IMG/VR virus record: IMGVR_UViG_3300046513_000343
Location: 13,778 to 77,777 of that record
Direction: 5' to 3' (one strand)
DNA: 64,000 nt
DNA from: a virus
A program made the position numbers and the translations under genes. A model generated the notes under the pieces. That model was not told where the DNA came from. It saw nothing but the letters and a program-made list of their open reading frames with translations, and did no database searches. Each line of letters starts with the position of its first letter. Positions within the stretch are counted from its first letter, which is position 1. Positions 13,733 through 26,206 of the stretch are shown piece by piece.

Positions 13733-14503
13733 TTACGAGGTTGGCAGGGTGATCGGGAACGAGCTGATGGTCTGCGTCGCGCCGGAGGTGATGCTGGTGG
13801 AAGACATGTTCAGCTGCGCACCGCTGGTGGAGATCGCGCCGTCCAGGCGGATCTCGGTCTCGGCCGAATCGAGCGCGCCCGAGTCGGCCACCGCGCCGAC
13901 GAAGCGGAACCAGCCGGCGGTGCCGGTGGCGCCGGCGATGCCGGACCAGGTCTGCGCGGCCAGTTTCGGCAGCACGCCAGCGGCGGCGACGCCGAAATTG
14001 AGGCCGTTGACGGCGGTCACGCCGCTGGCCATGTTGACATCGGTGCTGGTCATGGTGGTGCAGGTGGCATCGACCACGAAGCCGTTCGGGCCGGCGCCCG
14101 AGCCGCGCTTGGCACGGATGGTCACCACCGCGCCGGACGAGGTGGCGCTGTATTCCGGGTCGGAGGCGGCATTGTTGACCGCCAGCGCCAGGTCCACGGC
14201 GGTCTGCGTGAGCGAGGAATTGAACGGCACGGCGGCGTCAATGATGGCGATGCCGTCCACCGTCAGCGCGGTCACCGAGCCGGCCGAGCCGGCCAGGGTG
14301 ACGGTGCCGCTGGCCAGCACTTCGGCGGTGTGCGAGCCCGAGGCGTCGGTGATGGTGGCCAAGAGCGTGCCGGTCGGGGCGGCGTCGGCGGTGGCCGGCT
14401 GGGCGCCGCTGTAGACAAGGATTTTGCCGCCTTGCAGGGTGTCCTTGAGCGAGCCGCCCGAGAGAACGTGATTGCGCAGCGCAGAGCTGAGACGAAGGGT
14501 CAT
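13733..14503 (-). CDS. Virion structural protein, paralog of 45586-46005
   Basis: Start MTLRLSSALRN after GGAG; motifs IYSGAQPATAD, TGTAGWFR, DGAISTSGAQLN. Confidence 0.75.
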   Translation of the reverse strand: MTLRLSSALRNHVLSGGSLKDTLQGGKILVYSGAQPATADAAPTGTLLATITDASGSHTAEVLASGTVTLAGSAGSVTALTVDGIAIIDAAVPFNSSLTQTAVDLALAVNNAASDPEYSATSSGAVVTIRAKRGSGAGPNGFVVDATCTTMTSTDVNMASGVTAVNGLNFGVAAAGVLPKLAAQTWSGIAGATGTAGWFRFVGAVADSGALDSAETEIRLDGAISTSGAQLNMSSTSITSGATQTISSFPITLPTS

Positions 14504-20601: not shown

Positions 20602-20626
20602 GAAAAAAGACCCGCCGAAGCGGGCC
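20602..20626 (-). terminator. Intrinsic terminator after the capsid gene
   Basis: GGCCCGC-TTCG-GCGGGTC-TTTTTT. Confidence 0.8.
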
Positions 20627-20681
20627 TTTCGGGGTAGTCCGAACCCTGGTACGGATTATAGGATGGTTGTCAAAAAGACAA

Positions 20682-22125
20682 CTATGCGGCAGAATCCCAG
20701 CGAATGATGCGCGATTGCGCAGCGGCGGTCTGAACCAGGCCGAAACCGCCCATGTAGTACCAGGCCACACCACGCTGGCGACCGTAATCGCCAGGGATCA
20801 TGCCGCGCATTTCCTCGGGGATCACGATGCCCTCGGCGACGGTGTCGTTGCCGAAGAAGTAGGCCCAGTTCGACAGGCCGTTGGTGAACGCGGCCTTGGC
20901 GATGTTGGTCTGCTCGACGAAGCGCACCGACTCGTAGCGGCCGATCTCGCCGTTCAAGATCATCTGGAAACCGGCGTCCACGTACTGGTGGACAGCTTCC
21001 AGGTCGTTCTTCAACTGGCGGAACGTGGTCGGGTGGGCCAGGCTGATGTAGTCATCCTGGATATAGGGCGGGACGTTGCGCTCTTTCATCACGTCCACGA
21101 TGGCCTTCACGTGATTTTTGCCCAAACTCACATTATTCGTCGCCGTCGCAGTGCCGTTGGTGGTCAACGTCACGGCGGAAGTCGAGGTGCCGCCGGTCGG
21201 CACCACGCGCAGCGGGGTCAGGCGGAACTGCGCCTCGGCCATGATGTCGAAGGCCTTCTTGGCGTCGTTCTTCAAGACCTTGCTGATGATCTCCTTGACC
21301 GGCTGTTCCGAGAGGTCGTCCAGCTTGGAGCTGTACGGCACGCTGTTGCCGGCCTCGGTGATGGTCATGGTGCCCTGGGTAATTACGAAGTTCGTGGTTG
21401 GCATCGCGGTGCCTTCCGTGAGCGTCGTTCCTTGGGTCGCTACATCGCTGTAAACGTTCCACACACTGTTACTTGATAACCTGTCGCTGCATTGACAGGC
21501 GGGTGGTCATTTCTGCCACCTCACGGCGTTCATTGGGTTATATGCCGTGGTCGGACTATCGCATCCCCGTTGCCGGGGCCAACTCGCTTAGTCTCTCAGG
21601 CTGCACAGCCTTGCGGCTTGCTTGCCCCTTCTTTCCCGCTGCCGGGGGTTGAAGTCAATCAGAGTCGGTTTTAATTCCACCAGGTCGTTAATGGAATGCG
21701 TCACCCATGCCTTTACCCTGGACAGCTGCGTCCTTGATATCAGCAAATTGACGGAATTTTGTGAGTGGCTGGACGGCCATACGCAAAACTTTTGAGAGGT
21801 TGGGGGACCACATGTATCCCATTTTGTTCAGCAGAGATCGCTACACGCTGCTCGCCGGTTCCCACTCCGGCTGCTTGCCATTTCTGGCAAGATCAGACTA
21901 TTTCATCGTCCCTTGGGACGTTGCGCACTTCGGGGCGCTTGCCCCTACTCCCACCTACGGGATAGTCGTTGAACCTTCCGGCTTGCGCCGGCTTGGCTGC
22001 AGATTGTCTGCGCCTTAACGCGGTCAGAGTTCCCTGCAATTCACGCAATTATCAGTCGCCGATTACTCGGTGACGGGGCAGTGTTATTTACCCAGGCTGT
22101 TGGTGAGCCAGACTTGACCTGCCAT
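20682..22125 (-). CDS. Major capsid protein (N4-gp56-like); three exons 22125-22090, 21819-21691, 21461-20682; 314 aa when spliced
   Basis: AGGAG RBS and ATG 22125. Spliced reading MAGQVWLTNSLG|GYMWSPNLSKVLRMAVQPLTKFRQFADIKDAAVQGKGMGDAFH|WNVYSDVATQGTTLTEG..GEIGRYESVRFVEQ..DYGRQRGVAWY; follows the scaffold gene. Confidence 0.9.
21462..21690 (-). ncRNA. Group I intron 2 in the capsid gene (229 nt, no ORF)
   Basis: 5' exon ends UUCCAU, pairing with intron GUGGAA (P1 with U.G); CTGAGAGACTAAGCGAG and GCGATAGTCCGA (P7); ends in G before TGG. Confidence 0.9.
21820..22089 (-). ncRNA. Group I intron 1 in the capsid gene (270 nt, no ORF)
   Basis: 5' exon ends in U (GGU) and intron ends in G; P1 GGGU|A pairs with UGCCC (U.G at the splice site); core AATTGCAGGGAA, AATCTGCAGCCAAG, GGTTCAACGACTA, AAATAGTCTG (P7 GACUA/UAGUC). 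Confidence 0.9.
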
Positions 22126-22160
22126 GATATGTACTCCTAAAAGAGAAAGATGGACTCCAC

Positions 22161-23222
22161 CTATCCCCCGGCGCGCGCCGCCTTCATCGCCGCGATCACA
22201 TCGCTGGGATTTTCGGGCTGCTGCTCGGTGGTGGTGGTTTTGGTGTTGACCGAGGCGACGTTGTCGATCGATCGTTTTTGCTCCAGCTTTGCCGTTCGTG
22301 CGGAGGACGTGGTTGGGGCAGGTTCGGCGGGACGGCCCGCTGCGGTACTCGCGGCCCAGCCGAATTTGTTGGCCATGTCCTTGCTGACGGTATCCAGTGC
22401 AGTGAAGAAGTCACTGCCGTTCTGCTCGCGCAGGCGGTGGATTTTGGTCAGGGCCAGGGCCTCCATATCGGGGTCGCTGTACAGCTCGGGATAGTCGCGC
22501 TGGTTCTGCGCTAATGCACTCTCGACTGCGAACTTCTGCTGCACTTGCTGCGTGACGGCGTTGGCGATCTGGTCAATGTCGAGGGTGGGCGCAGCCGCCG
22601 TGGCGGGTTGCTGCCGTCCTCCAATGACCTTCTGCAGCGCGGTCAGCGCGTTTTCCTCGTCGCCCTCAAACAGGGCCTTGAGAAATTCCTTGCCTGACTC
22701 GTCCACCGGCGGGGTGTCGGTCGTGGCGGGGTTCGGGGTGGCGGTGGTTGCCGCCTGCTGGGCGCGCAGCTGGGCTTCCTGCTGTTCCAGCAACAGGCGC
22801 TGGGCCTGCGCTTCCTGGGCTTCGCGCAACAGGCGCGTGGCCTCGTTCAGGCGCTTGTCGGCGCTGCTGTTCTTCTGGTACTGGCGCACCACTTCATCGA
22901 GCGGCACATCGGTCTCGACGCCGTCGACCTTGACGCGCACCGTGGCCGGCGCCTCGGTCACGGCGGCGGGCGGGTCTGCCAGCTGCGCGGCCAGTTGCTC
23001 GGCCGGCGCCGGTGCTGGTTCAGGCTCGGCGGGTTCATCGACCGGCAGTTCGTAGCCGTTCGATTCGGCCATCTGCTGCTGGTGGCGGGTTTCCAGCGCT
23101 TCCATGGCCAGCTCGCGGGGCGACTTCGGGACTTCTGCTGCTTCGGTGGTGGTGGGCGTTGCCGGGGTGGCTGGGGTAGCGGGTGCGGCGGTGTCTTGCA
23201 CGTCCGTTGGGATAGCGCTCAT
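22161..23222 (-). CDS. Capsid scaffolding protein
   Basis: AGGAG RBS before MSAIPTD; VKVDGVETDVPLDEVVRQYQKNSSADKRL motif; coiled-coil; directly upstream of the capsid gene. Confidence 0.8.
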   Translation of the reverse strand: MSAIPTDVQDTAAPATPATPATPTTTEAAEVPKSPRELAMEALETRHQQQMAESNGYELPVDEPAEPEPAPAPAEQLAAQLADPPAAVTEAPATVRVKVDGVETDVPLDEVVRQYQKNSSADKRLNEATRLLREAQEAQAQRLLLEQQEAQLRAQQAATTATPNPATTDTPPVDESGKEFLKALFEGDEENALTALQKVIGGRQQPATAAAPTLDIDQIANAVTQQVQQKFAVESALAQNQRDYPELYSDPDMEALALTKIHRLREQNGSDFFTALDTVSKDMANKFGWAASTAAGRPAEPAPTTSSARTAKLEQKRSIDNVASVNTKTTTTEQQPENPSDVIAAMKAARAGG

Positions 23223-23240
23223 GTACGGCTCCTGAAATGC

Positions 23241-23272
23241 AAAAGCCCGCATGGCCAGAGCGGCGTGCGGGC
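23241..23272 (-). terminator. Possible terminator after the secreted-protein pair
   Basis: GCCCGCAC..ATGCGGGC-TTTTG. Confidence 0.45.
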
Positions 23273-23313
23273 AAATGTTGAAAAGCAGCGCCGCGTATGG
23301 CAGCGCTGCGGTT

Positions 23314-23796
23314 TTACTGCGGCGTGACTGGCTCGTCCAGGCAGGGCGCGCCGACCTTGCGGTAGGCGGCGCGCACGGCCTTGTTCTCGCACAGCACCTG
23401 CTTGGCCGCCGCCGTGTCGCCCAGCGAGCGCAGTTCGCGCGCGTTGAGGCGGTTGACGCATTCGACATCGTTCCAGGTGCCGCCCAGCGAGACGCCGAAG
23501 GCGATGCCCGACAGGCCGGCGCTGGTCGAGCCCATGCAGGTTTCCGACAGCGTGGTGGTCAGGGAGGGCGGCGCGATGCCCGGCGCCGAGCGCACCGTCA
23601 GCTTGTCTGGCGTGGGCGCGGCGTTGTAAATCGAGGTTTGCGCGTTACCGGCGTTGGTGGCGGTGCCGGACACCGAGCCGTTGCTGCTGGCGGTGCTGCC
23701 GGACGCACTCGTGTTGCCCGACGACTGCGCACTGGCGCTGCCGCACAGCAGCAGGCCCGCCAGACCAAGGTACAACCAGGACAGCGGGCGCGTCAT
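23314..23796 (-). CDS. Secreted protein: signal peptide, Ser/Gly-rich linker, 4-Cys C-terminal domain
   Basis: LLLCGSASA|Q signal; TCMGSTSAG..DVEC..VLC..GAPC. Confidence 0.7.
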   Translation of the reverse strand: MTRPLSWLYLGLAGLLLCGSASAQSSGNTSASGSTASSNGSVSGTATNAGNAQTSIYNAAPTPDKLTVRSAPGIAPPSLTTTLSETCMGSTSAGLSGIAFGVSLGGTWNDVECVNRLNARELRSLGDTAAAKQVLCENKAVRAAYRKVGAPCLDEPVTPQ

Positions 23797-24330: not shown

Positions 24331-24552
24331 CTAGTCGCCGTGGGTGGCTTGGCCTTTGACCAGGTAGCGCTGGCCGCAGTGCAGGCATTGTTCGCGGCGC
24401 TGGCTGTCGGCGTGGCGTTCCATCGGCCAGGTGCGGCTCTGGCAATGCAGGCAGTTTTTCAGTTTGCGCCAGCTGACCTTTTGCTCTGGTTCGCCGACGC
24501 GGGCATCGCGTGCCTGTTGCAGCAGGTCCAGCGGCAGGTCGTCGGTCAGCAT
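24331..24552 (-). CDS. Small zinc-ribbon protein
   Basis: Two CLHC motifs; start overlaps the end of the MTase gene. Confidence 0.55.
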   Translation of the reverse strand: MLTDDLPLDLLQQARDARVGEPEQKVSWRKLKNCLHCQSRTWPMERHADSQRREQCLHCGQRYLVKGQATHGD

Positions 24553-25835
24553 GGCGTGTCCTCGAACAGGTCGGGCTGCAAGCTCGCGCCTTGCGGGGAA
24601 GACGCGCAATCCGCCGCGGCCGTGCGCTGCGCGTGCAGGATGCGCGCCTCGGCAATCGGCAGGTACTCCGGGGTCAGTTCGATGCCGATGAAGTCGAAGC
24701 CTTCCAGCATGCAGGCCTTGCCGGTGGAGCCGCTGCCCATGAACGGGTCCAGCACCACGCCGCCCGGTGGCGTCACCAGCCGCACCAGGTAACGCATCAG
24801 CTCGGTGGGCTTGACGGTCGGGTGAAAGTTGCCGCGTGCGCTGTTGGTGCGTGTTCCCTGGCTGCGCCCTGCGCGCTGGTCCACCGAGGTCTTGATGCCA
24901 TTGAGCGGTTCGACGGTGTGCAGTGCGAAGCCCTCCAGCCCCTCGTTGCGGTCGCGCTGGGACACCTTGGCGCTGTAGAAGAAGCGCGCCGCGCTGCCGG
25001 TGTCAAAGTGACGTTCAGGAACGTCCTGCTGGCCGATATGGCCACTGGTGCTGATGCCACCGGCACCGCGCGCGGCCGGGGTATGGCCGACCGAGCTGGT
25101 GGTCGGGAAAGCGGCGATCACCTCGTCGCTGCCGTCGTGGATCAGGTTGGCGGGCCAGCGGCCAGGTGCGCCGCTCGGTGTCGTTTCGCCCATCTGGTAC
25201 GTGCCGGGGCGGTATCCCGCTTCGGCCAGTGCGGCGTTGCGGCGGTCAACACCGCTTGGCGTCGTGTTCACGAAATCGCCAACCCGGCAACCGTCGATAT
25301 TCAGTGCCCCGGTGCCGAACTGCAGCACGTTGGAGGCCACGGTGCCGATTAGGGGCTTGCGCGCCACGCAGATAGGCTCGTGCGCAGGTTTCAGCGCGGT
25401 GCCCCAGCCGGCGTGATCGCCGTCCAGGTTGAGCGATTTCGGGAATCCGCTGCCATACACCCACATGATCTGGTCGCGTATTTCAGCCCCGGCGTCCTCA
25501 ATGGCGCACGCCATGCGGTGATAGGTGCGGCTGCCCGAGAACGCCAGCAGATGCCCGCCAGGTTTAAGCACGCGCATCGCTTCGGTCCACAGCTCCACGC
25601 TTTGCGCGATGTCGCCGCCGTCCCATTTCATGCCCATGAACCCTGCCGAATTTAAGTGGCTGACCTTGCTGTATGGACTGGTAGTGCTTTTGCTCTCGCT
25701 CGCCTTGCCGCTGCCGCCCTTCTTGCCGGTCGTCAGGTGGTACGGCGGGTCGGTGACGATGGCGTCCACCGAGTTGTCGGGCATGCCGCGCATCACGGCG
25801 AGGCAGTCGCCCAGGTGCAGGGTAAAGTCGCTCAT
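24546..25835 (-). CDS. Orphan N4/N6 DNA methyltransferase (beta-type motif order)
   Basis: DAIVTDPPY precedes HPTVKP..VLDPFMGSGSTG. Confidence 0.9.
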   Translation of the reverse strand: MSDFTLHLGDCLAVMRGMPDNSVDAIVTDPPYHLTTGKKGGSGKASESKSTTSPYSKVSHLNSAGFMGMKWDGGDIAQSVELWTEAMRVLKPGGHLLAFSGSRTYHRMACAIEDAGAEIRDQIMWVYGSGFPKSLNLDGDHAGWGTALKPAHEPICVARKPLIGTVASNVLQFGTGALNIDGCRVGDFVNTTPSGVDRRNAALAEAGYRPGTYQMGETTPSGAPGRWPANLIHDGSDEVIAAFPTTSSVGHTPAARGAGGISTSGHIGQQDVPERHFDTGSAARFFYSAKVSQRDRNEGLEGFALHTVEPLNGIKTSVDQRAGRSQGTRTNSARGNFHPTVKPTELMRYLVRLVTPPGGVVLDPFMGSGSTGKACMLEGFDFIGIELTPEYLPIAEARILHAQRTAAADCASSPQGASLQPDLFEDTPC

Positions 25836-26206
25836 GTCGAGAATCCGAACATGTCGCGTTGCGGCGGCTCCGGGGGCTGCGTGCCGACGGCTGCGAGGAA
25901 TTCCTTCCAGTCGTCGCGGCGGTATTCCCACAGCAGCGCGTGTTGAGGGTGCAGGATTGCAAAGACGCGGGCCAAATCGGGCGCACGATGGTCGTTGATT
26001 TTCAAGGTGCCGTCGCTATCGCGCAAGCGGGAGAAGTGGCGCATGTCCTCAACAATGGTACGTGCCGAGAAGTGCTGTCTGCCGCGTTCAAGCATGACCA
26101 GCGCATGGCGCTCAAAGTCGTCGTAGATCGTCGGGTTATCGGCCAGCCACGCCAAGAATCCTGGCGCGAAGAATTGCCTGTAGCTTGCCAAGCGTCGCAC
26201 ATTCAT
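25832..26206 (-). CDS. Hypothetical phage protein
   Basis: ATGA overlaps; WLADNPTIYDDFERHAL..HFSARTIVE..KINDH. Confidence 0.65.
   Translation of the reverse strand: MNVRRLASYRQFFAPGFLAWLADNPTIYDDFERHALVMLERGRQHFSARTIVEDMRHFSRLRDSDGTLKINDHRAPDLARVFAILHPQHALLWEYRRDDWKEFLAAVGTQPPEPPQRDMFGFST

Follow-up and report, generated by a model that had tools for sequence, protein, structure and literature searches.

The major capsid gene described here lies on the minus strand of a 64,000-nt window (positions 13,778 to 77,777) of the viral record IMGVR_UViG_3300046513_000343; 'the window' refers throughout to this whole stretch. The source record is a linear IMG/VR viral contig of 77,777 nt that is ~79% complete, and the capsid gene stands in a late operon together with the genes for the terminase large subunit, the portal protein and a DNA methyltransferase. 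Two inserts split the gene into three exons (Table 1), and each of them brings a stop codon into frame: AAA-TAA directly follows exon 1, and TAA is the first codon after exon 2. When 22089-21820 and 21690-21462 are excised, a 945-nt frame of 314 codons is obtained. On the evidence presented below, we hold with high confidence that these inserts are two different group I introns devoid of open reading frames (ORFs), and that both would have to be removed for the capsid protein to be produced. They are the only introns in the 77.8-kb record.

Table 1. Layout of the split capsid gene and of the sequences associated with it (window positions).
Feature	Positions	Strand	Remarks
Shine-Dalgarno AGGAG	22134..22138	(-)	8 nt upstream of the ATG start at 22125; read from the sequence
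Exon 1	22090..22125	(-)	12 codons, MAGQVWLTNSLG; last base U at 22090 (codon GGU)
Intron 1	21820..22089	(-)	270 nt, ORF-less, IA type; terminal G at 21820
Exon 2	21691..21819	(-)	43 codons; last codon CAU, U at 21691
Intron 2	21462..21690	(-)	229 nt, ORF-less, predicted group I; terminal G at 21462
Exon 3	20682..21461	(-)	259 codons and stop; body of the N4-gp56-family major capsid protein
Putative transferred cassette (approximate)	21400..22100	(-)	end of exon 1 to start of exon 3; L015-like in an L014-like genome, from the mismatch profile
Terminator-like hairpin and U-tract	20605..20632	(-)	~50 nt past the capsid stop; pattern scan, consensus match only

The boundaries of both inserts were fixed exactly by comparison with uninterrupted homologues. 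Exons 1 and 2 encode residues 1-12 and 13-55, respectively, both at 100% protein identity to the uninterrupted homologue P0006. Moreover, P0006 and other uninterrupted 314-aa homologues read ...NSLG/GYMW... and ...DAFH/WNVY... (a slash marks the junction), matching both predicted joins, which at the DNA level would be CTGGGT/GGATAC and TTCCAT/TGGAAC. The same two-insert capsid gene is present in viral contigs L015 and L016, and in independent soil assemblies. An earlier reading of this stretch, made from its letters alone and referred to as the original prediction, had given coordinates, stop codons and exon sizes that proved correct to the base; the seamless 314-aa join that it proposed is borne out by the homologues, which align across both junctions.

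The original prediction was also right in expecting that annotation would truncate the gene, since the gene call in the window is a 260-aa product starting at GTG 21464. On its own, exon 3 has a match to phrog_1357, 'major head protein' (E 1.2e-17), but the exon-3-only product reaches 54.3 bits on TIGR04387 (N4-gp56 major capsid), under the cut-off of 60. This cut-off is passed, with 65.6 bits, by full-length P0006, which served as a stand-in for the window protein (identity 93% for exon 3, 100% for residues 1-55). The truncated gene call thus loses the N-terminal 54 residues and, with them, the TIGR04387 family name. The exon 3 product has more than 5000 homologues, the close ones mostly of exactly 314 aa, and the N-terminal 55 residues of the capsid protein are conserved throughout the family; the nearest cultured relatives of the capsid protein, at ~55% identity, are from Vibrio phages and all uninterrupted. 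Homologues of 300 aa (P0013, P0022, P0024 and P0073) were considered as signs of intron 1 and dropped, as their contigs (L019, L020 and L033) are uninterrupted. These 300-aa proteins start at MWSPN, that is, gene callers took the internal Met15 although the 14 upstream codons are intact and conserved.

Intron 1 was matched by the Rfam group I model RF00028 at 75.9 bits (E 1.7e-17; gathering cut-off, 50 bits) over 22099-21874, covering model positions 1-253. The alignment sets model U10 on base 22090, where it is paired to the G of the guide sequence GCCC. This guide, at 22079-22076, pairs with exon GGGU to give the first paired region (P1), with a U.G wobble at the 5' splice site, while P7 is formed by GACUA (21967-21963) and UAGUC (21900-21896). 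An alignment of seven copies of this class, all from the capsid family and located at codons 12/13, 184 and 293/294, yielded a consensus fold with P2, P3-P6, P8 and P9, in which 34 of the 66 pairs show compensatory changes. P7 covaries among the copies (GACUA/UAGUC, GAUCA/UGAUC and GACCA/UGGUC), and all of them end in ...GAAC(N)nG. Between P7 and the 3' strand of P3 (P3'), the hairpins P7.1 and P7.2 (alignment columns 139-152 and 157-171) also show compensatory changes, and this region of intron 1 is a 33-nt insertion with respect to RF00028. On the basis of P2 and P7.1/P7.2, intron 1 belongs to subgroup IA, an assignment made at the level of IA as a whole, spanning IA1, IA2 and IA3. The presence of P7.1 and P7.2 between P7 and P3' is an IA hallmark that intron 1 shares with the T4 td-type IA2 phage introns, and it is presumably the T4 td intron in particular that it resembles. 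Over half of viral group I introns have been classed as IA2 (PMC11835236).

The second insert belongs to a class that Rfam does not detect, with RF00028 matching 0 of 18 sampled cores, a result that tests the reach of the Rfam model and not the fold of intron 2. A 16-nt core word of insert 2, CCTGAGAGACTAAGCG, was found in 69 IMG/VR viral contigs, and a conserved core is common to 67 of them. We aligned 33 non-redundant cores of this class using MAFFT (alignment A1). From this alignment RNAalifold, unaided, returned P3 enclosing P4-P5 and P6, followed by P8, P9 and P9.1, which is the group I order, with 25 of the 34 pairs being compensatory. Once the P7 pseudoknot was added to this fold, 93.7% of the cells were paired, against 33-46% when the partners were slid. 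The covariation score was 0.484, compared with at most 0.127 in the slid controls, and 0/500 shuffles reached 0.484. Covariation backs P1, P3-P6, P8 and P9 of the class.

In the window copy, P3 is formed by 21668-21662 with 21585-21579, and P8 by 21578-21574 with 21569-21565. P7 comprises G21595, the bulged A21594 and GACUA (21593-21589), which face UAGUC (21558-21554) and C21553. The segment joining P8 to P7 (J8/7) is AUGCGA, of 6 nt, and P9, P9.1 and P9.2 follow. The minimum-energy fold of intron 2 alone reproduces P1, P3-P6, P8 and P9-P9.2, with z = -3.15. Beyond P9, a distal hairpin (window 21478-21510; A1 columns 180-208) has a variable, covarying stem and a strongly conserved loop, (G)CAGAAAUGA(C); the conservation of CAGAAAUGA suggests a tertiary contact.

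A covariance model built from 29 copies with an automatically derived structure, from which the window and all copies from the capsid family were excluded (R2), scored insert 2 at 129 bits over its full length (E about 1e-30), and found no match on the intron-less contig L014. The class model R1 scored the window insert at 145.6 bits. The intron at codon 184 of L011 (L011:312-568; KER/NIP; a Phycisphaerae-binned contig) sits between the two intron classes: it was matched both by RF00028 (65.6 bits) and by R1 and R2 (32-34 bits), and this double match links the RF00028-type and insert-2 classes. The signs of group I identity named in the original prediction are all in place, since a U stands before each insert, a G closes it, and GACUA...UAGUC lies inside. 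Its view that the two ORF-less introns have differing cores likewise agrees with our results, intron 1 having P2 and P7.1/P7.2, and intron 2, unlike intron 1, having neither. The covariance-model search by which it was to be checked gave the expected match for intron 1 but not for intron 2, which was recognized by R2 and not by RF00028.

The class of insert 2 is further defined by its pairing with the exons. Intron 2 has the guide GUGGAAU (21680-21674), whose partner at the exon end is AUUCCAU; in L035 the exon reads GUUCCAU, a synonymous change, and the guide follows suit with GUGGAAC, and copies at codon 35/36 (L022 and L149) combine exon UUCCGU with guide GCGGAA. Across the other host genes of the class we recognized ~10 distinct P1 helices, and in members without P2 the guide stands 4-6 nt upstream of P3. 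The automatic P1 finder used for this purpose searched 45 nt before P3 and misses members that have P2. It puts the U.G of the window intron 2 one base inside the intron, whose first base is also U; we placed the site after CAU because protein homology fixes it there. A U precedes the insert in every interrupted allele of the capsid family, whereas uninterrupted alleles have a U at the same place in 19/79 (site 12), 31/79 (site 35) and 19/79 (site 55) cases. The insert copies of the family all end in G, with an in-frame stop at or soon after their start, and in-frame stops at the 5' end of an intron have been seen as a device that stalls ribosomes so that the intron folds (PMC3984707).

The insert-2 class is not confined to this capsid family, and it is widespread among phages from the environment. 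Flanking ORFs were annotated for 20 other copies, and they encode ribonucleotide reductases in six cases, major head proteins of four other PHROG families in four, and portal or head-tail adaptor proteins in two; adjacent GIY-YIG or HNH endonuclease ORFs were found in four, and flanking ORFs without a PHROG match in the remaining four. A cultured phage is also affected. In the Roseobacter phage CRP-118 (OR420741.1, L186:1515-3588), the ribonucleotide reductase is annotated as two coding sequences, gp44 and gp45, and the unannotated 400-nt gap between them holds a copy of the class (R2, 106 bits), where Rfam gave nothing at E<=10. The split ribonucleotide reductase of CRP-118 therefore looks like an annotation error. 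The ribozyme class is the same as in the window, but the host gene is a ribonucleotide reductase and the phage a marine autographivirus. Searches of 50,697 deposited phage records by blastn with insert 2 and with a short-P6 relative returned one weak match each, the method being too insensitive for counting.

Within the capsid family, the introns are polymorphic in presence and position. A set of 93 related capsid loci comprises 79 of full length without any interruption and seven with inserts (eight if the fragment L011 is included), with insertion sites across the family at codons 12/13, 35/36, 55/56, 93/94, 184, ~289 and 293/294. In soil metagenomes of another study, intron-bearing contigs coexist with contigs that have neither insert; in the latter, the letters between the aligned parts amount to 138 (129+9) and 12 (3+9), which fits the junctions exactly. 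Further interruptions were found in individual contigs. L149:626-3237 carries a related capsid gene with three inserts: at codon 35/36, one of the Rfam-blind class; at codon 93/94, one of 991 nt with an RF00028 match (87.8 bits) inside it; and, close to codon 289 and in phase 1, an RF00028-type intron of 392 nt (92.3 bits). The 3' word of the insert-2 class led us further to a capsid gene of the family whose codons 55 and 83 lie ~1.7 kb apart (L170:7108-9701), and to those of L166, L171 and L173, with ~680 nt at codon 35/36.

The distribution of nucleotide differences revealed a mosaic. Over 2.4 kb upstream and through most of exon 3, the window is ~99% identical to the intron-less contig L014, but in exon 2 the DNA identity drops to 83.6%; mismatches to L014 in the coding sequence number 32 in the first 255 nt and five in the other 690 nt (Fisher p = 1.6e-14). 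Compared with L015, a carrier of both introns, the window is ~90% identical in the background but 97-100% identical within 21400-22100. Because of this pattern, both introns and exon 2 look like a single transferred cassette of ~700 nt. A co-conversion tract of this kind is the signature described for intron homing (PMC3984707). The independent invasions proposed earlier for the two introns can thus be retained in so far as the two classes have separate origins, but their arrival at this locus looks like one transfer.

Neither window intron contains an ORF, and hence an endonuclease ORF, according to the ORF list, and no homologue of the intron ORFs of relatives was found elsewhere in the 77.8-kb record, which is ~79% complete. 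Such ORFs, of 195-206 aa and with the motif LAGIIDGEG, occur in long versions of the insert-2 class at codons 35/36 (L037 and L088) and 55/56 (L038); two of them, tested against one another, proved to be homologues (E 1e-13).

Copies of the same class at different codons share short exon words. The class present at 12/13 and 293/294 has CCUGGGU/GG in common, and the insert-2 class sites 35/36 and 55/56 share UUCC(G/A)U, with a compensating change in the guide; between copies at sites paired in this way, identity is about 70% and 75-78%. It is tempting to speculate, though we regard this as doubtful, that insert 2 represents a compact lineage that prefers capsid, portal and ribonucleotide reductase genes and that would be missed by catalogues because these are seeded from RF00028, and that the shared-word sites reflect guide-directed ectopic spread. 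The shared words at paired capsid codons resemble the evidence cited for spread by reverse splicing in ribosomal DNA (rDNA), and may be circumstantial evidence for reverse splicing inside a protein-coding gene, a pattern so far mainly known from rDNA. Relaxed endonuclease specificity accounts for these sites equally well.

Taken as two mobile group I introns, the inserts would behave as follows. The primary late transcript would lose both introns to encode the 314-aa capsid protein. For this to occur, each guide would base-pair with the 3' end of the preceding exon, in a P1 whose U.G wobble lies at the cleavage site, and P7, with its bulged A and a G-C arrangement, would bind guanosine, the terminal G of each intron marking its 3' end. 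The stops at the 5' ends would halt ribosomes and allow the ribozymes to fold. Both introns would be selfish mobile elements whose homing endonuclease genes have been lost, LAGLIDADG-like ORFs being kept by relatives at the same codons, and both probably arrived together with the intervening exon by recombination with co-conversion. Homing as the route of entry, and neutrality of the introns to the phage, are what we infer from these observations.

Several results weigh against this interpretation. Self-splicing of the introns, including catalysis by insert 2, is predicted from sequence only. Intron 2 gave no match to RF00028, or to Rfam as a whole, even at E<=10 in a search of 951 nt, its P7 is invariant across the class and thus compatible with the fold but not itself tested by covariation, and its P10 pairing is weak (~3 pairs, including wobbles). 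With Pfam, the intron ORF of L038 reached only a sub-threshold match to LAGLIDADG_3 (E 0.0019), and that of L037 had no match. Finally, the window is a metagenome assembly, yet the same arrangement recurs in independent assemblies.

These points bear on the alternatives to different degrees. The Rfam result, namely, that RF00028 misses 18/18 sampled cores, the window copy and the CRP-118 copy at E<=10, would fit insert 2 being some other structured insertion that is removed or tolerated differently, as would the predicted nature of its catalysis. Yet the helix order P1, P3[P4-P5, P6, P7]P3', P8, P7', P9 with its P3/P7 pseudoknot, the bulged A and G-C pair in P7, the 6-nt J8/7, the U.G at the 5' site and the 3' G are those of a group I ribozyme. 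In addition, the guide covaries with the exon, the class model cross-matches an RF00028-positive intron, and other copies have GIY-YIG, HNH or LAGLIDADG-like endonuclease ORFs, all of which leaves this explanation very improbable. Slightly less probable still is that the inserts are not spliced at all, so that the gene would be a capsid pseudogene in a defective phage, or its protein would start at GTG 21464. Gene callers do yield the 260-aa product, and removal of the inserts is part of what is predicted here, but the residues encoded by exons 1 and 2 match those of intact homologues at 100% identity, and the differences from L014 fall mostly at third codon positions. Compensatory changes maintain the ribozyme cores, a strong AGGAG stands ahead of ATG 22125, the N-terminal 55 residues are conserved across the family, and the arrangement recurs in several contigs. 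Among other ways of dealing with the inserts, translational bypassing was rejected given their length of 229-270 nt and their ribozyme folds; inteins, given that the inserts hold in-frame stops; and group II introns, given a core that is group I, with no domain V and no reverse transcriptase.

The introns might be spliced and nonetheless be kept as regulators, with two splicing steps that gate or delay capsid synthesis or hide the capsid from capsid-sensing defences. Since no late product is more abundant than the capsid protein, its rate would be set by splicing efficiency, and both introns lie within the first 55 codons. However, near-identical phages occur with and without the introns, some in the same sample, and 79/93 related capsid loci do without any interruption. 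The same intron classes, moreover, occupy at least seven codons of the capsid gene as well as unrelated genes (ribonucleotide reductase, portal), and relatives carry homing-endonuclease-like ORFs, an overall pattern of selfish mobile DNA. We thus consider a regulatory role unlikely, and the gate against premature capsid synthesis or defences that the original prediction put forward is unsupported, as coexisting intron-less near-twins fit selfish elements better.

The phage that carries this gene is a roughly 100-kb soil or rhizosphere phage, whose DNA was present in both rhizosphere and soil metagenomes. The record had been attributed to a temperate phage, for which we found no support, there being no tyrosine or serine recombinase in the ~79%-complete 77.8-kb record. 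Between the portal and capsid genes of the head-morphogenesis block, at window 24549-25931, lies the DNA methyltransferase gene (phrog_67, E 1e-84). At 22164-23468, immediately upstream of the capsid gene, a 435-aa ORF without a PHROG match is rich in Ala, Gln and Glu, and by position and composition it could be a putative scaffolding protein.

Other phage genes are known to contain several introns. Staphylococcus phage Twort orf142 reportedly has three group I introns that were shown experimentally to splice; it is likewise a multi-intron phage gene, but both the host gene and the phage lineage differ from those of the window. Multi-intron capsid genes are themselves already known. In crAss-like phages of the Delta and Zeta groups, group I introns split the capsid gene into up to five fragments (PMC7886860). 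As in the window, several group I introns share one capsid gene in metagenome-assembled phages and complicate annotation. The crAss-like introns, however, were found via endonuclease domains in gut Bacteroidota phages, whereas those of the window are ORF-less, defined by RNA structure, and belong to a soil phage with an N4-gp56-type capsid. Group I introns also abound in jumbo gut phages, with a mean of 18.5 per genome (PMC12880540).

Group I introns in capsid genes have been published as well for Tuc2009 and for mycobacteriophage LittleE (Cluster J), where splicing was proven by reverse transcription PCR and N-terminal sequencing (PMC3706429). The LittleE case is similar in that the intron lies in the major capsid gene, follows an exon-end U and ends in G, that an intron-less allele exists in the close relative Omega, and that highly efficient splicing is required by the gene. 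It differs in that a single 819-bp intron with an endonuclease ORF, proven to splice, is found in a temperate actinobacteriophage, whereas the window has two ORF-less introns (270 and 229 nt) whose splicing is predicted. The original prediction had called tandem introns in such a capsid gene unusual, which is overstated in view of LittleE, Tuc2009 and the crAss-like phages (PMC3706429, PMC7886860), and of the four sampled insert-2 copies that lie in head-protein genes, which belong to four further PHROG families.

What the present analysis adds is a well-supported intron class to which Rfam is blind, the close spacing of insertion sites within a single 314-aa protein family, a sharply bounded cassette of two introns, and the shared exon words. 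The insert-2 class is missed by the single group I model of Rfam, so that the splits of capsid, portal and ribonucleotide reductase genes seen in viral metagenomes stay unexplained; the covariance model built here would detect the class in such genes. The understanding of phage capsid gene expression is left unchanged by this finding. The capsid family offers a natural population snapshot of intron mobility: at least seven sites are occupied, by introns of two ribozyme classes, some of which have endonuclease ORFs and some not, while intron-less alleles coexist with them and a co-conversion cassette stands out with sharp bounds. This makes it a good system for studying how ORF-less introns persist and move from site to site.

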